Notes under the pieces: model-generated | Told to the model about the DNA's origin: nothing | What the model saw: the letters and a program-made list of their open reading frames with translations, nothing else | Database searches by the model: none | Part shown: positions 23 through 60,605 of the stretch, in pieces | Layout of the letters: the number at the start of each line of letters is the position of its first letter | How positions within the stretch are numbered: position 1 is the stretch's first letter | Translations under genes and position numbers: made by a program | Origin: a virus | IMG/VR virus record: IMGVR_UViG_3300009548_000002 | Strand: one strand, 5' to 3' | DNA: 64,000 bases

Positions 23-79
23 TGTAGCCACGTTAGGGCAACAGGCAACGGGTTGACGCCTGACCCTAACGTGGCTACA
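23..79. repeat. Perfect inverted repeat TGTAGCCACGTTAGGG / CCCTAACGTGGCTACA, arms about 16 bp with a roughly 25-nt spacer containing TTGACG; candidate operator or binding site upstream of the RHH gene
   Basis: Read directly: arms at about 23-38 and 64-79 are exact reverse complements. Confidence 0.6.
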
Positions 80-80
80 A

Positions 81-3012: not shown

Positions 3013-3091
3013 ACGCAAAATTTGATGTACTGCCAAACGTCGTACGACTTTGTTTCGCAAGGTCGTAGAAGCGCGGTATCTTCGGCTCTTG

Positions 3092-3418
3092 ATGAAGGGC
3101 GACAACGTCATTCGCTTTCCGAAGAAGAGCGACAAGGACAAGAAGAAATCTGCATCGTCTCTGCCGTCTTCGCCGCAAGACTATCCGGATGCGCCCTTCC
3201 GGACGTGGTGCCCGACGTGCAAGCATCCCCTCTGGATAAAAGACGAGGAGGGCTATCCCGAATGGAAGGTACCCTCGATCCCGCGTGCATGCCGCGGTAG
3301 CTCCTGGTGGAAAAGGACCTTTGGAGGCGGATGCCCGGTCCAAGGCACGCATCTTCACCAGCGCTGTTTCCTTTGCCGCGACGAATGGGTCTGCCTTCCT
3401 CCGAAGAAGAACACGTGA
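3092..3418 (+). CDS. Small zinc-ribbon protein
   Basis: CPTCKHPLW...CPVQGTHLHQRCFLC; good GC3 from MKGDNVIRF. Confidence 0.45.
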   Translation: MKGDNVIRFPKKSDKDKKKSASSLPSSPQDYPDAPFRTWCPTCKHPLWIKDEEGYPEWKVPSIPRACRGSSWWKRTFGGGCPVQGTHLHQRCFLCRDEWVCLPPKKNT

Positions 3419-10801: not shown

Positions 10802-12333
10802 GCTTTCCCTTCCTTCACCGCGAGACGCCCTCGGTCGTGCGCGTCCTTCATCCGGACATCGACATCAAGCTTTTCGCGAACGAGTCGGTCTCCGTGGAGG
10901 CCGACGCATTCGAGCAGCTCATCGAGTTCGCCGACGTGGCCCGCGCGATCCGAGAAGTTCGTGAGCGGGACACGCGCGGCGCCGGCGATCCGTTCTTCGG
11001 CGACGCCGCGCCCGCGATCGAACGCGTCGTGCTCACGCCGGACTTTCACAAAGGCTCGGGCATTCCCGTCGGCACGGTGGTTCAGGCAAAGAACGTCGTC
11101 ATCCCGCAAGCGATTGGCAACGACGTCTGCTGCGGGATGCGGCTCCTCGCGACCGATCTGCCGGCCGAGTCCCTCGAGCCGCACTGGCCCGCGATCCAGA
11201 AGCGTCTCCGCGCGATCTTCTTCGAGGGCGAACGCGACATCCCGATGTCGCCGCGGCAGCGCGAAGCGGTCCTCCGTCATGGCCTACCAGGTCTTGTGGA
11301 CACGTCGGACGACAATCTCACGCGAGGGATCTGGCAGCGCTTCGATCCGAAGTCGCAGCGGGATGACGTCCACCACGTGCACGGCGGCGGGATCCTTCCG
11401 ACAAGGAGACTCTTCGGGTTCGAGAACTTCATCCGCTCGTCGGGCAACATCGACGGCCGCGACCCGCAGATCGGATGCGTCGGCGGCGGCAATCACTTCG
11501 TCGAGATCCAGCGCATCGACGCGCTCTACGAGGGCCACGCGGCTCGCGCGTGGAACCTCGTCCGCGGCAACGTCGCCATCATGGTGCACTCGGGCTCCGT
11601 CGGGATCGGGCACGCTGTCGGTGGGCACTTTATGGATCGCGCGCGCGAGATCTTCCCGAGCGACATCGCGTCGCCGAAAGGCGGCTTCTTCCCACTGCCG
11701 ACGGAAGGACCGAGATGCGAAGAGGGACTCTTCTATCTCGACGGGATGGGGAACGCTGCGAACTTCGCCTTCGCGAACCGGCTCTTTTTGGGTCTCATGG
11801 CTCTTCGCGCCATCGAAGAGGCGACAGGGCTCAGTATCGATGCGCGGCTCGTTTACGACGCGCCCCACAACCTCGTCTTCAAGGACAACGAGTCGTGCCT
11901 CCATCGCAAAGGCGTAACCCCGGCGCACGGGCCAACGGACGACGGCCAAGGTTCCGAGTGGCTCGGCAAGCCTGTCATCATCCCGGGGTCCATGGGCGCG
12001 CCGAGCTACCTTCTCGCGGGCGAGGAGAACGATGAAGCACTCTCAAGCGCGTGTCACGGCGCCGGCCGGAGTCTCTCACGCGGAAAAGCGGCACATGTTC
12101 CGCGCTCCGAGTACCTCGAATCCGTGGAGCGCCTCCGCATCGTCGGGCCCGTCGATCCGAAGTCGCCGATGATGCGAATGAGGAAAGACATTCTCGATAA
12201 ATACGAGAAGCGCATGATGGAGGAGGCGCCTTACGCCTATAAACCCATCGAGCCCGTCATCGACTCTGTCGTGGACGCGCACGTTGCGCAGCGTGTGGCG
12301 AAGCTCTTCCCGCTCTGCACCGTGAAAGGGTGA
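10798..12333 (+). CDS. rtcB: RtcB-family RNA ligase (joins 3'-phosphate/2',3'-cyclic phosphate to 5'-OH)
   Basis: RtcB metal/GMP motif series: DVCCGMR, GGGNHFVEIQ, HSGSVGIGH, LHRKG, CHGAGR; TTG start overlapping the upstream TGA. Confidence 0.9.
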   Translation: MSFPFLHRETPSVVRVLHPDIDIKLFANESVSVEADAFEQLIEFADVARAIREVRERDTRGAGDPFFGDAAPAIERVVLTPDFHKGSGIPVGTVVQAKNVVIPQAIGNDVCCGMRLLATDLPAESLEPHWPAIQKRLRAIFFEGERDIPMSPRQREAVLRHGLPGLVDTSDDNLTRGIWQRFDPKSQRDDVHHVHGGGILPTRRLFGFENFIRSSGNIDGRDPQIGCVGGGNHFVEIQRIDALYEGHAARAWNLVRGNVAIMVHSGSVGIGHAVGGHFMDRAREIFPSDIASPKGGFFPLPTEGPRCEEGLFYLDGMGNAANFAFANRLFLGLMALRAIEEATGLSIDARLVYDAPHNLVFKDNESCLHRKGVTPAHGPTDDGQGSEWLGKPVIIPGSMGAPSYLLAGEENDEALSSACHGAGRSLSRGKAAHVPRSEYLESVERLRIVGPVDPKSPMMRMRKDILDKYEKRMMEEAPYAYKPIEPVIDSVVDAHVAQRVAKLFPLCTVKG

Positions 12334-31807: not shown

Positions 31808-32008
31808 ATGTTTTTGGCGATGAAGTCCAGATCTCGATCTCGATCGCTCACGCAGGAGGAGCGAGAAGAGGCGCGTCGGCGCGAGCATGCGTACCGTGAG
31901 GCATGCAGGCTCGAGGACGAAGCGAACGTCGTCATCAAGCCGCTCACGTGGTGGAGACGCTTCTTCTTGTGGCTTGGCAAGACCTTCACCCGATGGGGAG
32001 CGACGTAA
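31808..32008 (+). CDS. Hypothetical small basic protein
   Basis: Track ORF. Confidence 0.3.
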   Translation: MFLAMKSRSRSRSLTQEEREEARRREHAYREACRLEDEANVVIKPLTWWRRFFLWLGKTFTRWGAT

Positions 32009-32011
32009 ACA

Positions 32012-33396
32012 TGGCGAACATCACCCTCGTCCTCGGTCTCGGATTTGGCGATGAAGGCAAAGGCGGCTGCGTAGATTTTTTGGCGCGTCACCACGACGCT
32101 CGGCTCGTCGTGCGGTTCAACGGTGGAGCGCAAGCGGGTCATAATGTCATCGACCCAAACGGACAGCACCACTGCTTCTCGCAGTGGGGATCGGGTACCT
32201 TCGCGGGCGCGCGGACGCTCCTGTCGCGGCACGTGCTCGTGAATCCGATCTTCGCCGAGAGCGAGGCGAGGCACCTCGAGTCCGCCGGCGTCCGGGATCC
32301 CTACGCGCTCCTCTCGGTCGAGCGACTCGCGCCCGTCACGACGCCGTTCCACGTCGCCGCGAACCGGTGCCGCGAGCTTTCGAGGCAAGCGGCGAGCGGC
32401 AGCGTGCACGGGAGCTGCGGCATGGGCGTCGGCGAGACGATGGAGGATCTCGTGGAGGGGAGAGAGACCGTTTGGGTGCGCGACTTCGAGGACGACACCC
32501 CGACGCTCAAGCGGAGACTCTTCCGCATCCAGGAGCGGAAGCGCTCCGAAGTCCTCCAGCTCGCGGCCCTCGATCGCCGCTCCCCGCGCGTCCTCCAAGA
32601 ACTCTTTGTGCTCGAGGACCCGAGCATCGTCGACGCCGTCTGCGCGTCGTACACGAAGTTCGCCCGTAAAGCGTCGATCGTGAATCAAGATTTCCTCGAG
32701 CGCGAGCTGGACGCTCCCGGCCACGTCGTTTTCGAGGGCGCGCAGGGCGTCCTCCTCGACGAGTGGTGGGGCTTCCACCCGCACACGACGTGGAGCACGT
32801 GCACCTTCGACAACGCGACGGAGATCCTCGGCGCCGAGCGCGCGGGCCGCGCTCGGCGCATCGGGGTGCTCCGCACGTTCCACACGAGGCACGGAGCCGG
32901 CCCCTTTCCGACGGAGAATAAGAGCATGGACGCGCTCTCGGCGGACGACCACAACAAGCGCGACCCTTGGCAACACGATTTCCGCACCGGAGCCTTCGAC
33001 CTCCTCCTCGCGCGGTACGCGCTCGACGTGTGCGGCGGGTGCGACGGCCTCGCCTTCACGCACCTCGACAAGCTCGAACGGCGCGCGAGCCTACCCGTCG
33101 CCATCGGGTACTACGTGGACGGCGCCAAGATGGTGCGCATCCCGCACCGGCGCCCGAACGATCTCCAATACCAAGAGCGACTCGGCCGGCAGCTCGCACA
33201 AGCGCAACCCATCTATGCCTCCGCGGATCTTGGCGGCGAGCGCATCGCCATGCTCCACGTGGAAGGACTCGCCGAAATGCTCGAGACTCCGCTTGCGATC
33301 ATCTCACGCGGCAAGACCGCTGCAGACAAGATCACTTTGGGTGAAGGCGCGCATGCTTCCCCGCGCCCGCAGTTCTCCACGCCGCCACCCAACTGA
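32012..33396 (+). CDS. Adenylosuccinate synthetase-family enzyme (PurA/PurZ-like), divergent in substrate-binding motifs
   Basis: GLGFGDEGKGG P-loop; GGAQAGHNV; FEGAQGVLLDEWWG; HTRHGAGPFPTE. The IMP loop reads GSCGMGVGE (canonical TTGRGIGP), the aspartate loop WQHDFRTG (canonical RRRRTG), and the guanine motif THLD (canonical TKLD). Start at MANITLVLG inside track ORF 31903-33396. Confidence 0.85.
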
Positions 33397-36363: not shown

Positions 36364-36395
36364 CCATGCATGTTCGTCAGTTGGTATGTCTTGAC

Positions 36396-36425
36396 GTGCA
36401 TTCGTGTACAACATAGATTCTCCCG
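36396..36425 (+). promoter_or_regulatory. Promoter candidate TTGACG-N17-TAGATT within a conserved ~55-bp motif
   Basis: TTCGTCAGTTGGTATGTCTTGACGTGCATTCGTGTACAACATAGATTC, near-duplicate of 37355-37410. Confidence 0.45.
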
Positions 36426-47234: not shown

Positions 47235-48173
47235 ATGCTGGGAGCACGAGCGCGTGCGCCAGATGCACATAAGCGATCGATCATGACCGAGAAGCGGCGT
47301 CCCGGCGTGCGTATCACTCAGGCCTCCTCACTCTATCCCTCCAATGATCGAAAACTATCCCGTGAGGAACTTGGTCCATGGCTCCCGAAGCCCTTGCCTC
47401 GACGCCGCCGCTCTCCATTTCCGCCCCGCCGCGTCTTCGGTTACTGCCGAGTCGATGGTGACTCGATTGCCGACCAGGAGGCCACCATCAACGCAGCAGC
47501 ACATGCACGAGGCCTGAGTCCTACCAGAATTCTCAAGGAGGCGAAGTCGGGCGTCGGTTGGAAGGCGGAGACACGCGACGAGATCCACGCCTTGCTCGCA
47601 GACATCCGCGAGGGTGACCTCGTCCTCGTCGACAAGCTCGCACGCTGGTCTCGCGATCCCGACTTCATGTACGAGACCGTGCGAGAGATCATTCAAGCGA
47701 AGGCTGACATCCACTTCATCAGCGAGGACATCGACCCCGCGACGGCGCGGGGAGCTGAAGAACTGTCGCTTCGCATCGCGTTCGCCCGACGGGCGCACGC
47801 GCATTTCCGGCAACGCACCAACCGCGGCCGCGAGCGCCTCCGCGACGCGGGCTACCGTGCTGAAGGGCTCCCGTCGTTCGGTTACAGGCGCGGTGAAGGG
47901 GCTACGCTAGTCGTGGTCGAAGAGAAAGCTGCGATTGTGGCGCGAGCGTTCGCGATGTGCATCTCAGGCAGTTCCGTGATCGAGATCTCTCGAGCACTCG
48001 GCCTTGGACGCAGCATCGTCAGTAAGATCCTTCACAACCGCATCTACATCGGTGAGCTGCGCGACTCCGACGGCAAATGGATCCGCGCGAAGCATGACCC
48101 GATCGTGGATCCCGACGTCTTCGCCACAGCGGCCGCCGCAATCGAGGCTCGCCGGTGCGCCAAGCCGCGATGA
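47235..48173 (+). CDS. Serine recombinase (resolvase/invertase catalytic domain plus recombinase domain); start uncertain, possibly TTG about 47388
   Basis: VFGYCRVDGDSIADQ catalytic motif; LPSFGYRRGEGATLVVVEEKAAIVARAF recombinase-domain motif; low GC3 in the first ~50 codons of the track ORF. Confidence 0.7.
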   Translation: MLGARARAPDAHKRSIMTEKRRPGVRITQASSLYPSNDRKLSREELGPWLPKPLPRRRRSPFPPRRVFGYCRVDGDSIADQEATINAAAHARGLSPTRILKEAKSGVGWKAETRDEIHALLADIREGDLVLVDKLARWSRDPDFMYETVREIIQAKADIHFISEDIDPATARGAEELSLRIAFARRAHAHFRQRTNRGRERLRDAGYRAEGLPSFGYRRGEGATLVVVEEKAAIVARAFAMCISGSSVIEISRALGLGRSIVSKILHNRIYIGELRDSDGKWIRAKHDPIVDPDVFATAAAAIEARRCAKPR

Positions 48174-48873: not shown

Positions 48874-49294
48874 CTACTCCACCTGCGGGAGGACCCGCTC
48901 CGTCATCGAATCGCGAACGATGATTTCGCCGAAGCGCGAACGCAGTTGGCCATCAGTGGCGCCCGTGAGCAGTTGGATGATCGGACGAAGCACGGAAAGG
49001 CGAACGTGCTCGTCGCTCACGCGCGTCTCATGCGCGATGAAGACGCGCGGGTGCGGGCACACCGCATCTCCCAGCATTTCCCGGACACGCGCGAGCGACC
49101 GCGGGGCGAGAGCGTACGTCTCGCCGTCTCGGCTAGCGCTGCGGTAGACCACCAAGGGTACGCTCGCTCCGCTTGCGGAGAGTTTCTCCTGCGCGAGGCG
49201 CTGGACCTCCCGGAGTTCGCCCGTCTCCTCGAAGAGAGACTCGAGCGGCGATCCGACGTTGGGATGGTTCGGGAGTTTCGGGAAGTTCTTCATG
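48874..49294 (-). CDS. Hypothetical protein, about 140 aa
   Basis: Start MKNFPKLPNH; C-terminal part of ORF 48874-49470. Confidence 0.4.
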
Positions 49295-50057
49295 GCCTTC
49301 TCTGCATGCTTTGCAAATCGATCGAGCTTGCCCGAACAAGTCGATTGCGAAGAAGTGGACGGTTCCGCCAGTGATCGTTGCGAACCTTGGCGTAGCCTTC
49401 CCGATGCGCCTTCATACGTCCAATGATGCCCTGGGCATCCTCCACGCGCACGTAGACGCCCTCCATCCAATCCGAATCGTCCGTCTCATCCATCGGCCGC
49501 GTGATCCCGACGCGTTTGGCTTCTTCAGCCAAAACGCTGCGCCACGCGGGCGTCTTGTAGAAACTCTTCCCGATGAACGAGCCGAACGCCGGCGCTTTCC
49601 CGAACGGGCCCGACCAAAGGCAAGACACGACGACCACGTCGCACGCGGCGAGCAGATCGTCACGATGAGCGACGCCCAGAAACCGTTCGCGTTCCCTGTC
49701 GAAGACGTCGTAGCCGAGCAGCCAGTCGGGGAGCGCGTCGTAATAGGCCTTGTGCTTCGCGAAACACCACTCGCCGTAAAGCACGTAACGACAGCCGAGC
49801 GCGTCGCGAAGGGCGTCCACGCGCTCCGCGGCCCACCCGTGAAAAGGTGCGAATTGCCGCTCTGAAAGTCCACCCCTCAAGATGTGACCACGACTCTGGA
49901 GCCGAATCTCGCCTTCCTCGAACCAGATGCCGACGTTGGCGCCGTCGACCTTCTCCTCCACGACGACGACGCGCGCGTGCTTCCACGCCTCATAGATGTC
50001 CTCGGTCGCGAGCGACGTGAGTCTGGGTGTCTTCGGGAATTTGATCGCGTCGCCCAT
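49290..50057 (-). CDS. ATP-dependent RNA/DNA ligase-family nucleotidyltransferase (probable RNA ligase)
   Basis: Motif I VVVEEKVDGANVGIW (KxDG lysine-adenylate site); YVLYGEWCFAKHKAY resembles motifs IV/V. Confidence 0.6.
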   Translation of the reverse strand: MGDAIKFPKTPRLTSLATEDIYEAWKHARVVVVEEKVDGANVGIWFEEGEIRLQSRGHILRGGLSERQFAPFHGWAAERVDALRDALGCRYVLYGEWCFAKHKAYYDALPDWLLGYDVFDRERERFLGVAHRDDLLAACDVVVVSCLWSGPFGKAPAFGSFIGKSFYKTPAWRSVLAEEAKRVGITRPMDETDDSDWMEGVYVRVEDAQGIIGRMKAHREGYAKVRNDHWRNRPLLRNRLVRASSIDLQSMQRRP

Positions 50058-50235
50058 GGCTCAAGTTCTCTCGTCTCTCGGTCCTCGATTACGCAAGAGC
50101 ACCTATCCAAACCACGGTCGCTGCAACCGCACCGCAGAAACTCCGTACAAAAATTCTCGAGAAAATCGGTCTAATCATGGGCTCTCGTTGATGGCACGAC
50201 AAAAATAATTTCTGTAAATCCGCCAAGATAAGTTT

Positions 50236-50940
50236 TTATCGGCGCCGATCCAACCTACCGTCCAGGGACAAAACCTTGATCCGGCATCGCTCGCATGCTT
50301 CGCGCTTGCGGGCGACATCACGTTCGAGCCGCTCGAGATCGCGCTCGTGGCGATAGAGAGCAGCCCTGGCCGATGACAAGCTACGCGCACGGGACGCCAC
50401 GATCTCTTTCTCGCGCAACTCGCGCTCCGTCTCGCTTCCATGCGTGAGCGGTCTTCCTTTCGCCGTCTTGCTTTTCCCGATGAGTTCCACGACCGTCTCG
50501 ACGGGTGCAAGCTCCCAACCTGATTTCGGCGGCAACTCGGGCATGCGTTCTTCGTAGAGCGTCGCCCGACGCTCGAGGACGGGGCGACCCGCTTCATCCC
50601 TCGAGAGCCACCAGCTCTGGTGGCTGTATGTTCGAAGGGATTTGATCAGGGGCACAGCTTCAAGCCGCTCGAGAGAAACGGGTCGCGCGAACACGCGGAA
50701 CGTGTCGTGCCATTGGTTCGAGCCGACGAAGAGGACCTGGGCACGACGGACGACGTACCGGGCGACGGGCGATCCGTGCGCGTCGACTCCTTCAGATTCG
50801 TAACCGGGACGGAGGAACCGCACTTCGCGACCGACCCATTGCGAATCTTCGAGCCGCGTCTTGCGAAGCACGTATCCGACGACGCTGCGGCCGGCGCGAT
50901 CGAGCAGGAGGCGTTTTTCGCCGGGCTGTTCCTTCATTCG
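50236..50940 (-). CDS. Hypothetical protein (start likely MKEQPGEKRLL)
   Basis: Track ORF 50236-51003. Confidence 0.4.
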   Translation of the reverse strand, partial: RMKEQPGEKRLLLDRAGRSVVGYVLRKTRLEDSQWVGREVRFLRPGYESEGVDAHGSPVARYVVRRAQVLFVGSNQWHDTFRVFARPVSLERLEAVPLIKSLRTYSHQSWWLSRDEAGRPVLERRATLYEERMPELPPKSGWELAPVETVVELIGKSKTAKGRPLTHGSETERELREKEIVASRARSLSSARAALYRHERDLERLERDVARKREACERCRIKVLSLDGRLDRRR

Positions 50941-51146: not shown

Positions 51147-52036
51147 CGTCGGCTCTTCTTGGAAGTGATGACGTCGTACTCCTCCTTCGTGTCGGTGATG
51201 ATGAACGTCACGAGTGACCGCTCGCGCTCGTCGAGCTTCTTGTCCAGCTCGCCCCAGATAAGGTCTTGGCGCTCCGCGCCACCCATACCGGCGAACCGCG
51301 CGGAGAGCACCCGGCCGCCGATGCGCTCGGGACCCGTCTCCTCGAGCACGACCTCGACGTTCTCCGGTGAGCACGCCGCGACGAGCGCGTCGCGAATCTT
51401 CTGCTCCAGTACTTTGTCCGTTGGCGCGGCGCGCGACGTCGGAGAGCGTTGGGTTTTTGAAAACTCGCGCGCCTTCGGAATCTCTTCTCCGTTCTTCACC
51501 ATGTCGCAGAGCACGTCGAAGACGACTTCCTCGATTCCGAAAAGTGCTTCCTCTCTTCCCGCGGCGAGAAACGAGAGGCTCGGGAACTCGTCGCAGAGTC
51601 CAACGTATTCTTTGTCCTCTCGGGACCACATGATTCGATATCCGTATTTCAGCCACGAATCGAAAAGATCTAACGACATTTGTTCGAGACGCGAAACCGT
51701 CCCAAATTGTTCGAGATCGAATTTGTCTCCCAGCGCTGCCTTGAACCGCAGCGCCCACCAAATGACACGGCGATCGGGATCAAGGACGCGGCCGAGCATC
51801 CGGACGTCCGGATTCATATCGTCATTGGTTCTGTCGCTTCCCGCCCGCGCAACGCGCCGGACATGGCGCTCGCGGAGGGATACCACGGTCGTCGCGACGC
51901 CGAGCGCGACGAATGCCCAGATGCTCTGACTGAGCCATGTGCCGGAGTCGGCGATGGAGAGATGAATGCCGAGGGCGACGAGGATCGCCGCGGGCACGAA
52001 TGCGAGGACGGAGATGGTGGTTTCAGAGAGCTTCAT
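51143..52036 (-). CDS. Membrane protein (two N-terminal TM helices plus a cytoplasmic domain)
   Basis: ISVLAFVPAAILVALGIHL and IWAFVALGVATTVVSL. Confidence 0.5.
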   Translation of the reverse strand: MKLSETTISVLAFVPAAILVALGIHLSIADSGTWLSQSIWAFVALGVATTVVSLRERHVRRVARAGSDRTNDDMNPDVRMLGRVLDPDRRVIWWALRFKAALGDKFDLEQFGTVSRLEQMSLDLFDSWLKYGYRIMWSREDKEYVGLCDEFPSLSFLAAGREEALFGIEEVVFDVLCDMVKNGEEIPKAREFSKTQRSPTSRAAPTDKVLEQKIRDALVAACSPENVEVVLEETGPERIGGRVLSARFAGMGGAERQDLIWGELDKKLDERERSLVTFIITDTKEEYDVITSKKSRR

Positions 52037-52524
52037 GATCTGTGTGCGGCGGGTGGCAAAGGCCAGGATGCGAGTGAGGCGCGACCGATCTCACGTGACG
52101 TCTCCGCGTCCAGGAACACGGCGTTGCTGAACGTGAAGAAGAACTCGAGGAGGCGCGCGGAGAAGAGGCCGCCCACGAGGACGATGAGAACGGCTCCCGC
52201 CATGTGTTTCAAAGTCTCCTCGTAGGAGGCGCCATGCGTGTCGCAGGCGATGTAGACCTGGCGTACGGGCTCCGCGATGGCGCGGAGCTTCCGCGTGATC
52301 GCGGGCTCCGCGGCATCGCCGAGCTTCCGTACGATCGCGACCATCTCGTGCACGCGGCGCTTGCTCGCGGTGTCGAGGCTGAAGGTGACGCCATCCGCGC
52401 CCCGGTGCACGTGGACCACGAGCGTCTCCTTCATCTCGGCGAGCTGCCTCTTCGCCGTTGCCCGCACGTCGCGCTTCAGGGAACATGGGAGTTTCTTGCG
52501 GACGATCTTCCGCGAAGGCATCAC
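52033..52524 (-). CDS. Hypothetical protein
   Basis: ATGA overlap; C-terminal hydrophobic stretch. Confidence 0.4.
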   Translation of the reverse strand: MMPSRKIVRKKLPCSLKRDVRATAKRQLAEMKETLVVHVHRGADGVTFSLDTASKRRVHEMVAIVRKLGDAAEPAITRKLRAIAEPVRQVYIACDTHGASYEETLKHMAGAVLIVLVGGLFSARLLEFFFTFSNAVFLDAETSREIGRASLASWPLPPAAHRS

Positions 52525-52790
52525 TTCCTCACTTCTTTGGCATCGGCAATACGGTTAAGAAACTCGACGAGGGATCGATTCAGGCGTGGCATGGCAGCCA
52601 ATTTGAAGATAAAAATCGGATCCTTGTCCAGATAATCGAAAAAGTAGCGAGATATGTTGATGATAACCAATTTGAAATTCGGGTCGGCGCAAAACAGCTC
52701 CAAATCTTCCATTGGGGTCGAAGAAAGCTCTTCACCGATCGCAGAGAGCACCCGATCGAGAAGTCGCACGTCCAGCCCGGCAAACTCCAT
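52521..52790 (-). CDS. Hypothetical small protein (well-coded part of ORF 52521-52931)
   Basis: Start MEFAGLDVRLL; lower-GC region. Confidence 0.3.
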   Translation of the reverse strand: MEFAGLDVRLLDRVLSAIGEELSSTPMEDLELFCADPNFKLVIINISRYFFDYLDKDPIFIFKLAAMPRLNRSLVEFLNRIADAKEVRK

Positions 52791-52879
52791 AGACTCGCGA
52801 AGCCCGCGTTGGCCCGCGTCTCGCGCTTTACGGGGCTTGTAGTTCTCGGGAAGTTCCTGACCACCGGGGATCTTGAACA

Positions 52880-53116
52880 AAAAGCGCGAACAACCCGAAC
52901 CGCCTGGGCGTAGAGGTCGCGCTCGTCCCATTCCGTGACCTCGTATTCGTGACCCCTGTCATCGCGCCAGCGGAGCGACATGCGCACGATCTTATGGTCA
53001 TCACCGTCTTTCTTCGACAGCTTGTCGAGACCGAGATGATGGGCGCAGCCGACAGTAACTTCACGTCGTACTTCAACCGAAAATTCGTAGTTCATCAAAA
53101 TGCACTCCTCTTCCAA
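52880..53116 (-). CDS. Hypothetical small protein (N-terminal well-coded part of ORF 52580-53116; end uncertain)
   Basis: MEEECILMNYEFSVEVRREV...; the downstream in-frame continuation looks non-coding. Confidence 0.25.
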
Positions 53117-53199
53117 CGCACAATCTCTTCACGTAAGAAATAAACGTCCTCTTAGTTCGTGTTACAGAACTATTGTACCTCACACATCGATATCAAAAT

Positions 53200-53400
53200 A
53201 AGGAAGATAAAAATCGCCTGCCTTACCGAACCACAACAGGCCTGACCGTACCGTACCGTACCTACCTTGCCTGCCATGCCCTACCCAGCCGCACCAGACC
53301 GTACCTACCTAGCCTGCTATGCCCCACCGAACCGAACCCAGCCTTGTCGTACCGAACCCACCTTGCCTGCCTTGTCCTATGGGTAAAGAGAGAAATTTCC
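53200..53400. repeat. Repeat-dense non-coding spacer (ACCGTACC, TACCTTGCCTGCC, CCGAACC motifs, pyrimidine-rich)
   Basis: ccgtaccgtaccgtacctaccttgcctgccatgccctacc...taccttgcctgccttgtcc read directly; lower GC than flanks. Confidence 0.5.
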
Positions 53401-53436
53401 CTTCTTTGTGGACGCCCACTGCACGCGCCCAGAGTG

Positions 53437-53934
53437 CTATTTCAAACCCGCCGTCTGCTTCATTCTTGCCGGCGGAAGAAGCGACGTCACTCCTTCGCGA
53501 AGGCCATCGAGTTCAGAGATCCCCACGACCTTGTCGCACCATCGGCGAAGCTCGTCGACCAGCCGATGAATGTATTCTTGCCTATCGGCGTGCGACGAGA
53601 GGATCCTGGACGGAGGATCATAGCCGCGCCCCGGCTTGAGGTTGATGAGCGAGCGCTGGGGAATCTCCCGGAACTTCGGAGGCTCTGTTCCAGCGATGCG
53701 GAGCGATTGGAGCTGGATCTTCATCGCGATGAGCAGGCGAGCCTGGTAAAGCCGATGAGCTTCTCCAGCCTTCGCGTCGTCCCACTCGAAATACTGATGA
53801 AGAGGAGATTTCTTCGACTTCGCTGCCTCGAGAACGTCTTTGGCTTCGAGGTGCCCTCCGTGAGCTTTTTCGATCTTGGTCAGCTCGCGAGTAACGATCC
53901 GTTGCTTGGTCTCGATTTTAGCTTTCAACATTTT
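53437..53934 (-). CDS. Hypothetical protein (start likely MLKAKIETKQ)
   Basis: C-terminal part of ORF 53437-54180 is protein-like. Confidence 0.4.
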   Translation of the reverse strand, partial: KMLKAKIETKQRIVTRELTKIEKAHGGHLEAKDVLEAAKSKKSPLHQYFEWDDAKAGEAHRLYQARLLIAMKIQLQSLRIAGTEPPKFREIPQRSLINLKPGRGYDPPSRILSSHADRQEYIHRLVDELRRWCDKVVGISELDGLREGVTSLLPPARMKQTAGLK

Positions 53935-54685
53935 ATTTGGCGACTTTCTTTTTGACGTTCCGGAGACCCTCTTTGACACCGGCCTTCGACCCGTCGAACA
54001 TGCGATCGAGATCACCGATGTCGAAATCCATGTCGAGCGCCCACTTCGGGATTTCAGGCGTAGGCATCGGCACCTGACAAGCCTTGATGATCTCCGCGTA
54101 GTCTTTTTGCGGGACGATCTCGGCAGCGACCTGCCAAGTGCCGAACGTGCCGTCTCGCTCGGTACGCCACTCACCGACACCGACGCGGCCGGCCAACTGG
54201 ACGAGTTCGATCAATTGATCCTGGGTCATCAGATCAGGAAAGTACTGGATCGGAAGTTTGGCCGTCCACGTGTCGAACTGCGGGCGGAACCGAATGTCTG
54301 GTTTGCGGCCGATCCCGCTATTGCGAACGATGTCCATACGAGGAGTGTATTCCGCGCCGCCGGCGTTCACGTACTGGATCGGAATCCCGTGACCCATGAC
54401 GAAGAAGGAGAGCTTGAGCTTTTTCTTCTTCTCGAAGTCCTTGACCAGCTCAGAAGCGGTGAGCATCGCCTTCTTGAACGCGATGCTCGGCATCACGATG
54501 ACGCCTTTGGCGTTGCGCACGCACGCCGCTTCGAGGATCTCACGCGGTTTTTTGAATTCACGCTCGACGGTGCGGCCGCAGTGCTTGGCCAGCATCTGCT
54601 CAACGCTTTTCTTCGAGAAAGCGTTCTGGATCAGGGGCGCCGTGCCCTCGATGCACACGATGCTCAGTTGTTGATCCTGCTTCAT
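53933..54685 (-). CDS. Hypothetical protein, 250 aa
   Basis: Track ORF; protein-like. Confidence 0.5.
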   Translation of the reverse strand: MKQDQQLSIVCIEGTAPLIQNAFSKKSVEQMLAKHCGRTVEREFKKPREILEAACVRNAKGVIVMPSIAFKKAMLTASELVKDFEKKKKLKLSFFVMGHGIPIQYVNAGGAEYTPRMDIVRNSGIGRKPDIRFRPQFDTWTAKLPIQYFPDLMTQDQLIELVQLAGRVGVGEWRTERDGTFGTWQVAAEIVPQKDYAEIIKACQVPMPTPEIPKWALDMDFDIGDLDRMFDGSKAGVKEGLRNVKKKVAK

Positions 54686-54689
54686 GAAA

Positions 54690-54870
54690 CACGTCGTAGC
54701 AGATCCAGTTACAATTTGTCAAATGACTCGAAAATACTCACTTGGTAGTGTTTGACATCTGTACAGATGTCAACCACGCGGACGTTCTCGAAAAAATACG
54801 TCGTACGACGACGTGTTTATCACTCAACGGAGTGATGATTCAAAGTTATAATCCCATAAACCTATCAATC
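54690..54870. promoter_or_regulatory. AT-richer intergenic hub with three perfect palindromes: TTGACATCTGTACAGATGTCAA (22 bp), ACGTCGTACGACGACGT (core CGTCGTACGACG) and TCACTCAACGGAGTGA
   Basis: Read directly; lies between a - strand block and a + strand block. Confidence 0.5.
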
Positions 54871-54929
54871 TCGAATGGTTCCGAACCTCGATTTGAGTGA
54901 ATCCAACCTCGCGCCAAGTTTCGTTTTCT

Positions 54930-55060
54930 ACCCTCCAGCGGCTCACAACCCACCACTCGCCGCTCGACTGAGATCCGTGACCGCTGGAGCACCGCTAGGG
55001 TCCGCGACCGCCGCCTTGCGCACGAGGCTGGCCCTCGCCCGCCGCCCACCACTCGCTGCC
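54930..55060. repeat. Direct repeats CGCCCACCACTCGC(C/T)GC (x2) and CCGCTCGNC in an apparently non-coding GC-rich leader
   Basis: Read directly; overlapping ORFs 54875-55105(+) and 54846-55301(-) look non-coding. Confidence 0.35.
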
Positions 55061-55118
55061 ACCGCTCGCCGGCGCTCGCCGTTGACGCCGATACGTCAAA
55101 TGTGATGCACTGGGTCGC

Positions 55119-55442
55119 ATGCCCAGCCCCGACACCTGCGCCCACTGCCGCGGAGCCCTCCACCTCGCGACCGACGCCGTCTCGCGCCGGATCCCGCCGC
55201 CCGACGCCATGCGCGGCGCGATGCTTTTCGGGATCGCCGTCGGCGAAGCGCACCTCGACATCAAGGACGTCTGCACCGAGTGCCGGGAGCAGATCGAGCA
55301 CATCAAGGAAACCATCCTCGGTGCCCAGCCCTCGAGCGAAACGAAGCGCGCCGCTCCTGCGACGCCGCCCATCGTGACCCCGCCGAGCGGCGAGAAGGTG
55401 CCGGCGCAGATGGCGCCGGCCACGACGCCCAAGGCCACTTGA
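55119..55442 (+). CDS. Zinc-ribbon protein
   Basis: CAHCRG...CTECREQ; strong GC3. Confidence 0.5.
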   Translation: MPSPDTCAHCRGALHLATDAVSRRIPPPDAMRGAMLFGIAVGEAHLDIKDVCTECREQIEHIKETILGAQPSSETKRAAPATPPIVTPPSGEKVPAQMAPATTPKAT

Positions 55443-55708
55443 AAACGGTCGACGGTGATCGCGCCGAGGTCCTCAGCAGCGTCGCTCGGAAGATCCTCGA
55501 AGTGATGAACGCCGAGAAGCTCTCGGCCAATGAGGCGCTCATCGTTCTCGCACGCATCATGGGTCAGTGCGAGGGGCACGGTTTGCTCCACGGCGAACTA
55601 CACGGCAGCCTGGACGCGGTTCACGCGGAGATCTCGGGACGCGTCGCCGAGGAGCGCGACGCGTACATCGCGTACGCGCGCGAAAAAACCGAGATGACAT
55701 TCGGCTAA
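55439..55708 (+). CDS. Hypothetical small protein (TTG start overlapping TGA)
   Basis: Good GC3 from LKTVDGDRAEV. Confidence 0.4.
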   Translation: MKTVDGDRAEVLSSVARKILEVMNAEKLSANEALIVLARIMGQCEGHGLLHGELHGSLDAVHAEISGRVAEERDAYIAYAREKTEMTFG

Positions 55709-55718
55709 GATCGAACGC

Positions 55719-56243
55719 GTGTACTCCCCGTGCATGCTCTTCCGCGGCTTCGACGGCCTGGACGACAACGGTCGCATGATCGTCGTGCGGGCGCTGCTCG
55801 AGACGCTCACGCTGTCGAACTGGCAGTACATGAAGCGCCATCCGGAGACGCCGCTCCTCTACGAAGCGCGACCCCGGTACGTCGTCCATCCCGCGCGGGG
55901 CGGCGACGAATGGCGCGACATCGCCGAGACGTTCAAGCGCGGCGCCGGCACTTGCAAAGACTTCGCGTGCATCCGGGTCGCGGAGCTTCGGATGCAGGGC
56001 TACGAGGACGTCGTGCCGTTCATCAAGCTCATCACGTATCCCGATCCAAAGAAGCGACGACCGCCGCTCACGCTCTTCCACGTGCTCGTGCGAAACGGTG
56101 ACGAGTACGAAGATCCTTCGAGCATCCTCGGGATGCCCAAGAACCTAAGCTACGCCGAGCTTCGCGATCATCCAGACGCGGGAGGCATTCACGGCGCGCG
56201 CTGGGGCCTCGAGCAGTGGGCCTCGACGTCAGCGTCGCCGTGA
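55719..56243 (+). CDS. Possible transglutaminase-like cysteine peptidase
   Basis: GAGTCKDFACIRVAELRMQGYED (Cys motif), LTLFHVLV (His), EYEDPS (Asp) in transglutaminase-core order. Confidence 0.4.
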   Translation: MYSPCMLFRGFDGLDDNGRMIVVRALLETLTLSNWQYMKRHPETPLLYEARPRYVVHPARGGDEWRDIAETFKRGAGTCKDFACIRVAELRMQGYEDVVPFIKLITYPDPKKRRPPLTLFHVLVRNGDEYEDPSSILGMPKNLSYAELRDHPDAGGIHGARWGLEQWASTSASP

Positions 56244-58364
56244 AGATGAAGTTCGACGCTTACGAGTCCGAGGTGCCGCCTTCTTGTCCTTGTTCATCCC
56301 GAAGATGACGTACCCAGCGGCGAGGCCAACAAGAGCGCCGGCAAAGATCTTTTTCCACGGCATGCCCGTCTCGACGCTGCCCGCGACGAGGTAGTCGGCC
56401 TCGGGAAGTTCGTCCATCTCGCCATAGCGATCGAGGATCCCGACGTTGTGCGTGAGCGCGTTGTCGGGATCGAGAGCAAGCCTGGACTCGGGCTCGGGCT
56501 CAGGCCACCACGCTTCGGGCGCGAACTCCGGCCATCCTGCTTGCTGCCCTGACCACGGATAGTCGACGTCGTTCGCGGGAGGCAGAGATTCTTTTGCGAA
56601 GTATCCCGCCCAATCGCGCTCGTACGACCACGGAGGTTGTCGCTCGCGTGCGCGCGTCGTGGGACTGGAAGGCCAGCCACCGTGCGCAGGTTTGGACGAC
56701 GCTGGCCCTTGGGTCACTTCCGCGGGAGAAGCGACTTCGGCGGACGGGATGCCGGGCGGCTCGACGTTGCCTGACGCTTCGCCGGCCGCAACGCTCTCCG
56801 CGGACGGGATACCGGGAGGTTCGACAGAGGCCGAGATCTCGGGCGGTCCTGCGGCAGAAGCTGAAGGAATTCCTGGCGGAGAGATGCCCACGCGCGCATC
56901 GCCGGGCGCAACGATTTCTGGTGACGGCACGCCGGGCGGCGTGATCGCCGCCGAAAGCTCGCCGGCTCCGTGGCTACTGGCAGAAGGAATACCGGGTGAT
57001 CCGACGACGGCCGAGATTTCGGACGGCTGAACGATTTCAGGTGACGGGACGCCGGGCAACGCGAGCACGACGGAGACGTCACCGGTCGCGACGACGCCGG
57101 GTGACGGGACGCCGGGCGGAGCGACTCCTTGAGATGCGTCCCCGGGCGCGATGACTTCGGGAGACGGGATGCCTGGCGATCCGACGACCGCCGAGAGTTC
57201 GCCCGCTCCAGTGATCTGCGGCGACGGGACGCCGGGCGGAGCGAGCGCGAGAGAGACGTCGCCGGCCGCGACGACTCCGGGCGACGGGATGCCAGGCGAT
57301 CCGACGACGGCCGAGATGTCACCCGTCACGATGACTTCGGGTGATGGGATGCCGGGCGGCTCGAGCGCCGCCGACACGTCGCCCGCAGAAACGATTTGCG
57401 GTGATGGAACTCCGGGCGGCTCGATCGATCCGGAGAGATCGCCAGCAGCGACGGCTTGCGCGGACGGGATGCCAGGAACCGCGAGCGCGCTCGCGAACGA
57501 TCCCGTTCCGACCCCTTGCGGCGACGGGATGCCCGGAGGCTCCATCGACGTCGACACGTCACCCGCGCCCACGATTTGCGGCGACGGGATGCCCGGCGGC
57601 TCGATCGATCCAGAGAGTTCACCTGCAGAGGTGACTTGCGCAGACGGGATGCCAGGAACCGCGAGCGCGCTCGCGAACGATCCCGTTCCGACCCCTTGCG
57701 GCGACGGGATGCCCGGAGGCTCCATCGACGTCGACACGTCGCCTGCGCCTACGATTTGCGGCGACGGGATGCCCGGCGAACCGACGACGGCTGCCACGTC
57801 GCCTGCGGAGACGACTTGCGGACTCGGAATGCCCGGCGGCGTGATCGCTGCCGAGACATCCCCGGCGCTCACGACTTGCGGCGACGGGATGCCCGGCGGC
57901 GTGATCGCGGCAGCGACATCACCTGCAGTCGTGATCGACGCGGATGGAATACCCGGAGGCTGGATCCGCTCAGCAACGTCGCCCGCGCTCACACGTGCGA
58001 CGCTGACGATGCCCGGCGGCGTGATCGCGACGGCGACGTCTCCCGCATTCGCGATCGATGCGGATGGAATCCCCGGCGGCTGGATCCTCTCGGCGACGTC
58101 GCCCGGGCTCGCGGTCGCGACGCTAACGATGCCCGGCGCGTCGATGACGATCGCAAGCTCGGCAGGCTCGACGAGCATGACGCTCGAGATGCCGGGCGGC
58201 TCTACGAGAATCGCAACGAGGCTACTGCCCTGCACACCGCCACTCGGAACGCCGGGAGCCGCGACGATCTGTATGACTTGGCCCGCGCCGCTCGAAGCAG
58301 CCGACGGGATGCCAGGCGGCGAAAGTACGATCGTCTGGGAAAGGCGCGCGAGGAGAAGACTCAC
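56229..58364 (-). CDS. Repeat protein, 711 aa: about thirty tandem 17-residue units (PPGIPSxxxxxAGDVSxxx), then a W/P/E-rich domain, a C-terminal TM helix and a basic tail
   Basis: 51-bp DNA periodicity with a 180-bp higher-order duplication (57476-57655 vs 57656-57835); C-terminus IFAGALVGLAAGYVIFG + KKAAPRTRKRR; start is 12 nt after the upstream gene. Confidence 0.6.
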   Translation of the reverse strand: MSLLLARLSQTIVLSPPGIPSAASSGAGQVIQIVAAPGVPSGGVQGSSLVAILVEPPGISSVMLVEPAELAIVIDAPGIVSVATASPGDVAERIQPPGIPSASIANAGDVAVAITPPGIVSVARVSAGDVAERIQPPGIPSASITTAGDVAAAITPPGIPSPQVVSAGDVSAAITPPGIPSPQVVSAGDVAAVVGSPGIPSPQIVGAGDVSTSMEPPGIPSPQGVGTGSFASALAVPGIPSAQVTSAGELSGSIEPPGIPSPQIVGAGDVSTSMEPPGIPSPQGVGTGSFASALAVPGIPSAQAVAAGDLSGSIEPPGVPSPQIVSAGDVSAALEPPGIPSPEVIVTGDISAVVGSPGIPSPGVVAAGDVSLALAPPGVPSPQITGAGELSAVVGSPGIPSPEVIAPGDASQGVAPPGVPSPGVVATGDVSVVLALPGVPSPEIVQPSEISAVVGSPGIPSASSHGAGELSAAITPPGVPSPEIVAPGDARVGISPPGIPSASAAGPPEISASVEPPGIPSAESVAAGEASGNVEPPGIPSAEVASPAEVTQGPASSKPAHGGWPSSPTTRARERQPPWSYERDWAGYFAKESLPPANDVDYPWSGQQAGWPEFAPEAWWPEPEPESRLALDPDNALTHNVGILDRYGEMDELPEADYLVAGSVETGMPWKKIFAGALVGLAAGYVIFGMNKDKKAAPRTRKRRTSSSRRR

Positions 58365-58376
58365 GGCAGCGCCTTT

Positions 58377-59138
58377 CTAGAACTGCACCCAGTCCATCGA
58401 CGTGTACGCGAGATTGCCGGCTTGGGTCGCGACGGGATTTTCACGCATGATGACCAAGTTCGGACCCGTTACCGGGATCGGCGTCTCGTAATCGTGATCT
58501 TCGCTACCTCCCGCGAGGTGGAGGATGATGTCTCCGGCTTGGAGGATCGGATTCGTCGTACGAGGGTCTCCGGTCACGACCATGTACGATCGACCCGCGG
58601 CGAGCGTGCCCGCACCGGTGTGCTTGGTGATGTAACAAGTGACGCCGACGGGGACGTAGTGATGGGCATAGAACGTGGAGTTGTCGCCGATCGCGATCGC
58701 GGCCATGACGACGCCGCCGCCCGCGACAGCGGTCATCAGGTTGATGGTCCCGACGTTGGCCAAGTTCGAGCCGCACGACGCGATGACCATGCTCTCGATG
58801 AACTGGATGTCGTTGCCGACGGTGTTCACGGGCGTCACGCCGTTCAGCGCCACCGTCTCCGACTTGGGCTGCATCGCGTTGTTCAAGTAGTTGATCGTGA
58901 CGGAGATCGCACCCGTCCCGGCCCCCGCATCGCTCGCGCTCGTGGAGACGACGCTCCTCTGCCCCTGCGCGACCTGCTGCGCGAACGTCGTCGCGCGCAC
59001 GTTCGTCGGTACGTTGAGGGTGGGCGCCGAGACGTACCCCACGTTCCGGCCCGCGCTCGCGTTCGCATAGGAGCTTGGCGAGATGGCCAAGCAGAACTGG
59101 AACGGGATGACGGACGTATCGCCAAACGGATCAGGCAT
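58377..59138 (-). CDS. T/A/G/N-rich probable virion structural protein
   Basis: Track ORF; composition typical of beta-rich structural/fibre proteins. Confidence 0.45.
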   Translation of the reverse strand: MPDPFGDTSVIPFQFCLAISPSSYANASAGRNVGYVSAPTLNVPTNVRATTFAQQVAQGQRSVVSTSASDAGAGTGAISVTINYLNNAMQPKSETVALNGVTPVNTVGNDIQFIESMVIASCGSNLANVGTINLMTAVAGGGVVMAAIAIGDNSTFYAHHYVPVGVTCYITKHTGAGTLAAGRSYMVVTGDPRTTNPILQAGDIILHLAGGSEDHDYETPIPVTGPNLVIMRENPVATQAGNLAYTSMDWVQF

Positions 59139-59156
59139 CTAAAGACCTCACGTTGA

Positions 59157-60605
59157 TCACATCCAATAACCGTCGACCGACACCGTCCCGCGATTGATGC
59201 CCGGCGTTGCCGCGGCCGTCGTCACGAGCCACTTGAAGCCGATGTGCGTGAACAAACCAGGCAAACAGATGAGCGGCGTCTTCGGAGCCCACGTGGTCGC
59301 CCCCGTTGCGCTCCACAACGTGCCGATTGCCGGTGCGATCGTCGTCGTGTACTGGATACCGAGAGCCTGTCGCAAGCCGCCGCCCGTCGAAAGTAAGTTG
59401 GTGGTGGCGTTGACGCAGACGAACCACTCGATGAACGGCACTCCCGTGAGCGACATCGCCGTCGTGACCATCGGCGCGGGGATCTGGATGCTCTGGAGCA
59501 CGAGCGAATACGGCGTTGGATTCTGGAAAGTGAAGATCGGGGCGCCGGTCTCGATCGCCGCCACGCCCGCAACCGCGTACTCGCCACCGAGGAAAGCGTA
59601 GCCCGTCGTCGCGTTCGCAGGCGTCAACGTCGCGGGGATCGCATTGAACGGCGACGGCGTCTGCGCGCCGGTCAGCGGGTTCACGAGCGCCGATCGCATC
59701 GCAAGTGCCGACTGATCCGACCACGGCATGTTGTTGAGCGCGTCGAGGATCTGAACGGTGTGCGCCGACAGCTTGAGCTGCACTGCAGTGCCGCCGCCGA
59801 CACCGTCCACGTACACGCGTGCAAAACTCGGAACGTGGGAGACGGCGAACGAGTACGGGACGCTCAGGGAGAGCGGCATCTGCATGTCGACGATCGGTCG
59901 TTCACTCGAGTCCGACACGATGAAACGAGCGAAGTCGTCATCGACGATGACGTCGTAATAGTAATAGCTTGTGGTGGCGACGACTCCTTGCGCGAGCACC
60001 TGAGTGACTTGCTCGGTCCCATTGTATGAAAGGACCGCCGCAAGCGTTCCGTCGGCGCGCCAGCGGAAAAAGGCACCGTTTTGAACGATGGCCGTCGTGG
60101 TCGTCGGCGCACCAAAACCAAGCTCGGCGATCGTGTGATTGGCAGCGGGATTCGCTGACAAGAGTGCCCGGAAGCGGCAATAGAGGGGCTGGCGGGCATA
60201 CTTGGGAAATTGACGCTGACTCGTGATGATCGCATCCGTGTTGAGCGTCGTGATCCCGCCATTATTGAGCGTGAGAACACCCGTCACCTGCACGGCAGTC
60301 ATCGTGGCGAGCGATTGCGTCCAGAACGCGTTGATGTTCGCGCCCTCGAACGCGTCTTGCCAAAGGATCTGTTCGCTCGTCGTCCGCTGGCTCGAATACG
60401 TCCCTACACGAATGGCTCGAAGAACGGTGCCGGAGTCGAGTCCGGAGACGGGCAGATAACCCTGCGTCGCGGGGGCGACAGACTTGTCGGCAGGAACAAG
60501 AACGTTTCCGTTTGCATCGTAGAGAAGCGCGCGCCCGCTACCGAATGCGTCGACGTCGAGGATGTTCGAACCCGAACCCGCTCGTCCTTGTACCTGCCAC
60601 GGCAT
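59157..60605 (-). CDS. T/A/G-rich probable structural (fibre or capsid) protein, 482 aa
   Basis: Track ORF; long, low-charge, T/S/N/G-rich. Confidence 0.5.
   Translation of the reverse strand: MPWQVQGRAGSGSNILDVDAFGSGRALLYDANGNVLVPADKSVAPATQGYLPVSGLDSGTVLRAIRVGTYSSQRTTSEQILWQDAFEGANINAFWTQSLATMTAVQVTGVLTLNNGGITTLNTDAIITSQRQFPKYARQPLYCRFRALLSANPAANHTIAELGFGAPTTTTAIVQNGAFFRWRADGTLAAVLSYNGTEQVTQVLAQGVVATTSYYYYDVIVDDDFARFIVSDSSERPIVDMQMPLSLSVPYSFAVSHVPSFARVYVDGVGGGTAVQLKLSAHTVQILDALNNMPWSDQSALAMRSALVNPLTGAQTPSPFNAIPATLTPANATTGYAFLGGEYAVAGVAAIETGAPIFTFQNPTPYSLVLQSIQIPAPMVTTAMSLTGVPFIEWFVCVNATTNLLSTGGGLRQALGIQYTTTIAPAIGTLWSATGATTWAPKTPLICLPGLFTHIGFKWLVTTAAATPGINRGTVSVDGYWM

Follow-up and report, generated by a model that had tools for sequence, protein, structure and literature searches.

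A palindrome-bearing divergent gap beside a phage VIPR locus as a candidate promoter-operator hub

What does a palindrome-bearing gap between two diverging phage genes control, and does it act as DNA or as RNA? The question is raised by a 433-bp intergenic gap in IMG/VR virus record IMGVR_UViG_3300009548_000002, of which a stretch of 64,000 nucleotides (nt) was analysed as a whole and is called the window below. To the left of the gap vipr starts at 54685 on the − strand, and to its right p107 starts at 55119 on the + strand. The original prediction had placed both gene borders correctly and had described the region as a palindrome-rich switch between opposing gene blocks, a candidate replication origin, packaging site or operator hub; it had not recognised the flanking gene as the effector of a VIPR (Viral Interference Programmable Repeat) system, an RNA-guided silencing system related to CRISPR (bioRxiv 10.64898/2026.04.26.720920, 10.64898/2026.04.26.720927). 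On balance, we favour reading the gap as a divergent promoter-operator hub, with a possible insulating terminator, that would control a leaderless operon of vipr, the accessory gene vap and an array of vrRNAs. The operator half of the earlier proposal is the part best supported, by an AT-rich divergent gap, −35 boxes, a symmetric 22-mer and a recurring dyad core, whereas the origin and packaging half found no support. A palindrome-bearing divergent promoter region is ordinary as an element, and its significance comes from the VIPR locus that it appears to control.

Palindromes, promoters and a recurring motif in the gap

The genome context of the gap is GC-rich (63%; window mean of 62.7% with a standard deviation of 5% for 150-bp intervals). 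The segment next to vipr (54686–54850, 165 bp) has a GC content of 41.2%, in keeping with the earlier description of it as unusually AT-richer, and this left trough falls within the lowest 0.3% of the window, the share taken by 150-bp intervals at or below 43% GC.

Three perfect palindromes had been claimed within this segment, and we found that one of them is perfect. The 22-mer TTGACATCTGTACAGATGTCAA (54752–54773), with the halves TTGACATCTGT and ACAGATGTCAA, is fully self-complementary both by direct reading and by a repeat scan, and bears TTGACA at each end as stated, so that the hexamer is carried on either strand. It is 41% GC, complementary through its centre, and centred ~77 bp upstream of the vipr ATG. 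Perfect inverted repeats with a stem of at least 11 bp number three in the whole window versus 0.27 in shuffles; the other two consist of G+C only and lie inside genes, and the intergenic DNA of the window has no palindrome other than the 22-mer whose arms reach 9 bp. Exact matches to its half-site in the window are its own two arms only, and matches with up to two mismatches number 7 against 8.3 expected. The 22-mer is therefore unique, and its candidate role rests on its perfect symmetry and its position.

The second element, IR2 (54794–54818), reads AAATACGTCGT-ACG-ACGACGTGTTT and is an inverted repeat with imperfect 11-nt arms, their complementarity being 91%. The 17-mer that had been quoted for it, ACGTCGTACGACGACGT (54798–54814), is not self-complementary, and its perfect part is the 12-mer CGTCGTACGACG only (54799–54810, ~120 bp upstream of the vipr ATG). 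The third, IR3 (TCACTCAACGGAGTGA, 54819–54836), is a hairpin or dyad of the form ATCACTC-aacg-GAGTGAT, in which a 7-bp stem encloses a non-palindromic 4-nt loop instead of forming a perfect palindrome; taken alone, IR3 is a chance-level feature. Around these elements the sequence AAAYACGTCGT occurs in three exact copies, at 54687 (+), 54794 (+) and 54808 (−), with no others in the 64 kb. The copy at 54687–54697 overlaps, on the − strand, the predicted vipr −10 box and +1 position.

Promoter-like hexamers are concentrated outside genes, as intergenic DNA, which makes up 16% of the window, contains 9 of the 12 copies of TTGACA. Counting TTGAC within 120 nt upstream of predicted starts gave 15 copies, six of which are followed at a distance of 34–39 nt by an ATG without a Shine-Dalgarno sequence (starts at 87, 27779, 36426 and 37413, together with vipr and p107). 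Four of these six genes carry TAnnnT-like boxes (TACAAG, TAGGTA, TAGATT and TAGGCT) 5–10 nt before the ATG, which is the layout predicted for a leaderless mRNA. Promoters of leaderless mRNAs are known from Actinobacteria, Deinococcus and their phages, and resemble those here in the succession of TTGAC(N), 16–18 nt, a TAnnnT-like box, 5–10 nt and the ATG.

For vipr and p107, TTGAC lies ~37 nt before the ATG. The predicted vipr core promoter (54686–54722, − strand) consists of TTGACA (54722–54717), an 18-nt spacer, TACGAC (54698–54693), seven further nt and the ATG at 54685. The predicted p107 core promoter region (55079–55118, + strand) reads TTGACG-N17-ATGCAC-N8-ATG and includes a TTGACG..CGTCAA dyad (55083–55100) as well as TGTGAT. 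In L092–L094, the relatives in which p107 is 74% identical, conservation of the gap (80%) is confined to the 45 bp directly ahead of p107. Downstream of the vipr start, no promoter- or terminator-like signal was found between vipr, vap and the vrRNA array, at the end of which there is a T-run; the three are therefore probably transcribed as one unit. Elsewhere among the predicted promoters, 36391–36425 and 37378–37412 are near-identical (TTGAC[GA]TGCATT[CG]GT[GA]T[AG]CAAC[AG]TAG..) and precede the ATGs of consecutive + genes, the copy at 37378 having a TGCAT..ATGCA dyad inside its spacer. At the left end of the window (1–86), the TTGACG −35 box of the leaderless-type promoter ahead of the gene at 87 lies between the arms of a 14-bp inverted repeat, TAGCCACGTTAGGG ... 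CCCTAACGTGGCTA.

Unlike the 22-mer, the dyad core recurs. The 10-mer core GTCGTACGAC is present in exactly two copies in the 64 kb, both in divergent gaps. The second copy (3039–3048) lies in a 91-bp gap (3001–3091) between a − gene (2170–3000) and an unannotated + open reading frame (ORF) for a Cys-rich protein of 108 amino acids (aa) (3092–3418), where it abuts a promoter-like site (TTGGCA-N18-TACGTT-N6-ATG). A related dyad, TACGACG-TTT-CGTCGTA, lies in a further gap at 38227–38243, and GTCGTAC occurs 19 times in the window versus 4.6 expected, with nine copies intergenic. In L001, the nearest relative on the vipr side (Vipr 73% identical), three of the four GTCGTAC copies in its 20.7 kb fall in a 280-bp gap upstream of a p107 homolog that is likewise divergent from the vipr side. 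Because the motif recurs, partly as separate half-sites and once where a terminator is implausible, the recurrence of GTCGTAC(GAC) points to a protein-binding motif. Its presence in other gaps and upstream of the L001 p107 homolog also makes it appear to belong to a small phage regulon. No paralogy was found among the genes downstream of GTCGTAC sites. Restriction-site avoidance around GTAC was considered and rejected, as GTAC is over-represented instead. A GTCGTAG half-site is also present 20 bp from the GTCGTACGAC copy at 3039.

The VIPR locus to the left of the gap

VIPR systems were first described in 2026, with a role in phage-phage conflict. Vipr is a RAMP protein of minimal form, in which an RRM core is joined by a thumb and a glycine-rich loop. 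It coats the vrRNAs, which consist of tandem GGY/NN pentamers, and the systems silence DNA targets, in the reading of which one nucleotide is skipped. A typical locus combines vipr with an accessory gene, vap, and has its vrRNAs in the intergenic DNA on either flank or both, and the studied type II examples are those of Escherichia phage SUSP1 and of a Pseudomonas fulva prophage (bioRxiv 10.64898/2026.04.26.720920, 10.64898/2026.04.26.720927). In SUSP1, one vrRNA is located upstream of vipr (bioRxiv 10.64898/2026.04.26.720920). Neither preprint (10.64898/2026.04.26.720920, 10.64898/2026.04.26.720927) describes promoters, operators or expression control of VIPR loci.

The vipr gene of the window (53933–54685, − strand) encodes a 250-aa protein without a Pfam match and with a PHROG match of unknown function only (phrog_4652). 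We found 35 homologs in metagenomes and used 30 of them for a family profile, which matched PDB entry 36pp, 'SUSP1 Vipr protein', with E = 2.6e-7 over the G-loop motif GvGEWRP..fG. An AlphaFold2 model built from the family alignment reached a mean predicted local distance difference test score (pLDDT) of 87.7, and a Foldseek search of PDB with this model gave, at E values of ~1e-6 to 1e-4, CRISPR type III Csm/Cmr subunits and related RAMP effectors as the top 50 matches. The profile match and the modelled fold show that the gene at 54685 encodes Vipr, a RAMP protein and the effector of a VIPR system.

The accessory gene vap (53437–53931, − strand; 164 aa, phrog_15946) is conserved beside vipr: by tblastn, most fetched loci have a homolog of it immediately after vipr. 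Its product has no Pfam or PDB match, a homolog search recovered two proteins only, and a single-sequence model (pLDDT 56) was too poor and was not used. Downstream of vap, on the same strand, lies a vrRNA array of GGY/NN pentamers (53213–53371) with three guides of ~43–53 nt each (53309–53361, 53266–53308 and 53213–53265), with the handle GGCAGGCWAG dividing them and a T-run at the end. When both strands of the window were scanned for GGY at period 5, a single place was found (53213–53385, −), and the published criterion of at least four tandem YNNGG was reached only at 53241–53346 (−); the autocorrelation of GG at lag 5 in the array was +0.46. The leader, the handles and the TCTTCCTTAGTT-like 3′ end of the array are conserved in L001 (11540–11810) and in a second fetched locus, L002 (8840–8990), with differing NN positions. 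Among 80 genomic relatives fetched from GTDB genomes, GG period-5 arrays were found downstream on the vipr strand in ~70, also upstream in ~16, and on the other strand in 1; the best genomic relatives of Vipr come from metagenome-assembled genomes of Acidobacteriota and Planctomycetota.

Because vipr, vap and the vrRNA array are all present, as judged from sequence and structure model, the gap is the 5′ flank of a complete VIPR locus. The locus is a new member of the recently described family; its phage is uncultivated and is represented by many metagenome contigs, the exact p107 protein occurring on at least 22 of them (the longest 261,538 bp). It resembles the described VIPR systems in having a Vipr homolog with the G-loop and RAMP fold, a conserved adjacent accessory gene, a same-strand GGY/NN array with a conserved handle, phage encoding and long intergenic flanks. 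In contrast to SUSP1, the Vipr protein here is distant, matching by profile over ~55 residues only, and the guides are short (~8–10 pentamers, 43–53 nt) with the GGCAGGCWAG handle between them and no long structured 3′ tail seen. SUSP1 carries a vrRNA in its 5′ flank, whereas here guides lie only downstream, a short-handle array layout that is common to many relatives. The palindromes of the gap have no described counterpart in known VIPR loci.

Several observations were made on this module and its relatives. Vipr relatives with ~31–33% identity, annotated as hypothetical proteins, are present in cultured Mycobacterium and Gordonia phages (Saal, Donkeykong and Ecliptus among them), which could be used as tractable models. 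The guides of the window, L001 and L002 gave no target read with a 1-nt skip at 14/16 or better in the window, L001, L002 or a further locus, L005. Autoregulation through self-targeting of the gap by the guides was rejected, as no such match at 14/16 or better lies there. The sole guide self-match above the null (16/20, marginal) is inside vipr at 54204–54232 (+) and could be a trace of guides directed against the vipr genes of rival phages, or chance. Troughs in which 150 bp are at or below 45% GC number only four in the 64 kb (50087–50288, 52514–52759, 53022–53283 and 54645–54943), three of them flanking the VIPR module, and the overall GC content of 53–55 kb is 54%; the module may have been acquired from elsewhere as a cassette of distinct composition. 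At 52521–53116 (−), two overlapping ORFs of 178 aa and 136 aa occupy different frames. The N-terminal part matches a 171-aa gene that lies upstream of vipr in L001, on the other side of the VIPR module compared with here. Contigs of the same phage annotate its product as either 171 aa or 136 aa, which may reflect a frameshift or an ambiguous gene call.

How the gap may act, and the competing explanations

In the hub that we favour, the 433-bp gap would be a back-to-back control region whose left, AT-rich third drives and probably regulates the VIPR operon. A host sigma-70-type promoter (TTGACA-N18-TACGAC-N7-ATG) would transcribe vipr, vap and the vrRNAs, yielding a leaderless mRNA, and the p107-p89-p169 cassette would use its own promoter just before 55119. 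The dyads would be operators for sequence-specific, probably dimeric, DNA-binding proteins that time VIPR expression, with the 22-mer near −77, the CGTCGTACGACG dyad near −120 and the AAAYACGTCGT half-site over the vipr −10/+1 as the operator set. On the − strand, IR2 and its six-T run may also terminate antisense read-through from the right and so insulate the VIPR operon, a possible source being a 711-aa gene that overlaps the end of the + cassette. We read the symmetry of the 22-mer at the DNA level because an RNA hairpin needs no complementary loop bases. Dyad-symmetric sites near or over the vipr promoter, namely the 22-mer, the three copies of AAAYACGTCGT and the core that recurs in other gaps, are present beyond chance.

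As predicted from sequence, this arrangement is comparable with divergent control regions such as lambda OR/PR-PRM and TetR-tetA in its back-to-back units, AT-rich gap, −35-like hexamers, dyad sites of 12–22 bp and repeated half-site over the predicted core promoter. Differing from these regions, the −35 boxes of our gap are ~360 bp apart with a GC-rich spacer between them, the main palindrome is upstream of the −35 box (centre ~−77) and not over the promoter, and there is no recognisable repressor gene. If the 22-mer and the GTCGTACGAC sites are operators, the locus would provide a compact and testable case, with a 165-bp control region and a ~1.5 kb operon. A stronger form of this reading, which we put forward only tentatively as rather improbable, is a dedicated on/off switch in which a regulator gates the leaderless VIPR operon through the 22-mer and the GTCGTAC(GAC) sites. 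Vap itself might be that regulator, or else p107 or p89 from the divergent cassette. If this holds, it would be the earliest account of how transcription of a VIPR system is controlled, and the deployment of VIPR would be linked to a small phage regulon. In a weaker variant, the G-rich − strand of the spacer in the right part of the gap could yield a non-canonical VIPR-associated RNA without the pentamer period.

Several results weigh against a hub of this kind. Pfam, PHROGs, NCBIfam and PDB sequence searches found no helix-turn-helix, ribbon-helix-helix or other DNA-binding domain in Vap, p107, p89, p169 or ~25 neighbours. The −10 boxes of vipr (TACGAC) and p107 (ATGCAC or TGTGAT) are weak, weaker than those of the other four leaderless-type genes, and a consensus scan reports no promoter in 54400–55400, so that we only infer the vipr and p107 promoters. 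GTAC and CGTACG are in excess across the whole genome, which accounts for part of the surplus of GTCGTAC. There is no second copy of the 22-mer, and a check of conservation, as had been advised for the palindromes, found them absent from L001 and L092–L094, the nearest distinct relatives on both sides. The exact 22-mer had no match in two public collections, one of viral contigs and one of metagenome contigs, and 52000–58000, including the gap, had no DNA match in INPHARED phages. Six other contigs are 100% identical over 54640–55140 in the same orientation, but they belong to the same phage and therefore carry no signal of selection. Nor do vipr 5′ flanks generally contain long palindromes: 10.7% of flanks versus 5% of controls had arms of 8 bp or more, which were GC-rich and terminator-like, and the palindromes were rejected as a general trait of these flanks.

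The right part of the gap bears on whether it acts as RNA. At 63% GC, 54851–55118 has no frame with the coding signature of a GC content much higher at third than at second codon positions, which agrees with the apparently non-coding GC-rich leader described before, and the GC-rich stretch is ~230 bp long; a hidden small gene was ruled out, as in no frame does third-position GC exceed second-position GC. The spacer at 54900–55080 is C-rich on the + strand and contains a strong hairpin (54933–54989; −21 kcal/mol on the + strand and −28 kcal/mol on the − strand) together with direct repeats. These repeats, CCCACCACTCGC(C/T)GC at 54949–54963 and 55045–55059, exist as described, identical at 14 of 15 positions, and their probability in GC-rich sequence is borderline (p ~ 0.05 by a rough estimate). 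The − strand of the spacer is G-rich (GC skew of −0.25 to −0.46), RNA from the − strand of the entire gap has a better fold than shuffles (z = −2.55), and an Rfam search of 54500–55300 gave no match even at E ≤ 5. A perfect TATAAT hexamer (54847–54852, +), with a weak −35 sequence TCAACG at a position that IR3 overlaps, is a possible extra promoter into the spacer by its sequence, and was not reported by the consensus promoter scan.

Could the palindromes then act mainly in RNA? In one such explanation IR2 and its T-run, with help from IR3, form an intrinsic terminator or insulator before the vipr promoter, which stops − strand read-through from the genes at 56.2–61.8 kb or ends a − strand non-coding RNA (ncRNA) from the spacer, and the 22-mer is a further hairpin of the transcript. 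As in intrinsic terminators, IR2 on the − strand (54814→54788) has a 7-bp stem with four G-C pairs and a 3-nt loop, followed by ATTTTTT; a terminator scan flags 54814→54798 (−), and the site is the most canonical of 19 candidates in 18 kb and has the best T-run. The hairpin energies (IR2 −8.2, IR3 −7.8 and the 22-mer −13 kcal/mol), the folding of the − strand RNA, the overlap of the 711-aa gene with the end of the + cassette, near which no terminator candidate is reported, and, in L001, a hairpin (AAATACACA..TGTGTATTT) within the AT-rich gap that precedes the vipr-containing block all favour this view. Yet IR2 precedes a gene start within a divergent gap instead of following a co-directional gene; upstream of it, the nearest − strand gene ends 1.4 kb away, beyond the + cassette, and no convincing − promoter was seen by eye upstream of the spacer, nor by the consensus scan. 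The IR2 core recurs where termination is implausible, as the GTCGTACGAC copy at 3039 folds weakly (~−4 kcal/mol) in a 91-bp divergent gap in which a terminator makes no sense, and in L001 the motif occurs as separate half-sites and not as hairpins. In the 22-mer, complementarity extends through the centre and neither strand carries a T-run, and an ncRNA is not supported by Rfam. We consider a mainly RNA-level role unlikely. A second RNA-level explanation, that the spacer encodes an upstream guide or another VIPR ncRNA on the − strand with the palindromes as terminator or processing signals, gains from the upstream vrRNA of SUSP1, from the ~16 of 80 genomic relatives with upstream arrays, from a G-rich − strand that ends at a terminator-like hairpin, and from a period-10 GG pattern in 5 of 5 units (p ~ 0.009, post hoc and uncorrected for multiple tests). 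However, the lag-5 autocorrelation of the spacer is −0.14 compared with +0.46 in the true array, and its best run covers 5 of 10 units (p = 0.40). There are fewer than three tandem YNNGG on either strand of the gap, the handle GGCAGGCWAG was not seen there on reading the sequence, and the spacer is not conserved in L001 or L092–L094. A canonical vrRNA in the gap is ruled out because there is no period-5 signal, no tandem YNNGG run and no Rfam match, and the explanation as a whole seems quite improbable.

Two further explanations place the function at the DNA level. A site-specific recombination site, the border of an invertible segment or a module scar, with the 22-mer as recombinase core and the + cassette as an inserted or invertible module, would account for synteny with L001 breaking exactly at the vipr start codon, for the p107-p89 pair occurring without VIPR in L092–L094, and for the AT-rich troughs on the flanks of the VIPR module. 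A serine recombinase gene (47235–48173, +; 312 aa, Resolvase and Recombinase domains) is present 6.5 kb away, but it is not adjacent to the gap, and no link between it and the palindromes was found. No element of the gap has a partner inverted or direct repeat in 54500–59300, which includes the other end of the cassette, the half-site of the 22-mer has no second copy, and the region is identical and in the same orientation in all six fetched contigs; an invertible cassette was rejected for lack of flanking inverted repeats, and the recombination reading as a whole is very unlikely. For a replication origin or a packaging (pac/cos) site, the 165-bp AT-rich segment with its dyads speaks in favour, as does a cumulative GC skew that is minimal near 55–56 kb in the window. 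This skew check, which had been suggested earlier, shows only a weak change of sign, ~6 kb long, that begins near 56 kb, ~1 kb to the right of the gap, probably because of the composition of the PPGIPS-repeat gene at 56229–58364. There is no DnaA box within one mismatch in the gap and no iteron array, only a 10-mer in 1.9 copies; no initiator, helicase, primase or terminase was recognised among ~40 proteins scanned, within ~9 kb, and the region is not conserved in relatives. Gene orientation likewise shows no genome-scale switch at the gap: the genes do diverge, as the notion of opposing blocks implied, but the + block consists of only three genes (55119–56243) and − genes resume at 56229. An origin or packaging role is thus highly improbable.

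Genes to the right of the gap and elsewhere in the window

The + cassette of 1.1 kb (55119–56243) consists of p107 (55119–55442), p89 (55439–55708) and p169 (55734–56243). No recognisable domains were found in the three products, of which p107 carries a CxxC...CxxC pattern. The p107-p89 pair is conserved in L092 and L093. The 711-aa protein encoded on the − strand at 56229–58364 is made of PPGIPS/PPGVPS repeats of ~30 residues and has a weak PHROG match to 'minor tail protein'; the 3′ end of its gene overlaps that of the convergent p169 by 15 bp.

Further from the gap, 31969–33396 (+) encodes an adenylosuccinate synthetase homolog (Pfam E = 1e-61), which could be a PurZ-type enzyme for 2-aminoadenine DNA. 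The window also contains genes for RtcB (10837–12333) and an RNA ligase (49290–50057), as well as tRNA genes at 40308–40380 and 42341–42501, which may together form a module for tRNA repair or decoding. The tRNA at 42341–42425 has a four-base anticodon (actc) according to ARAGORN.

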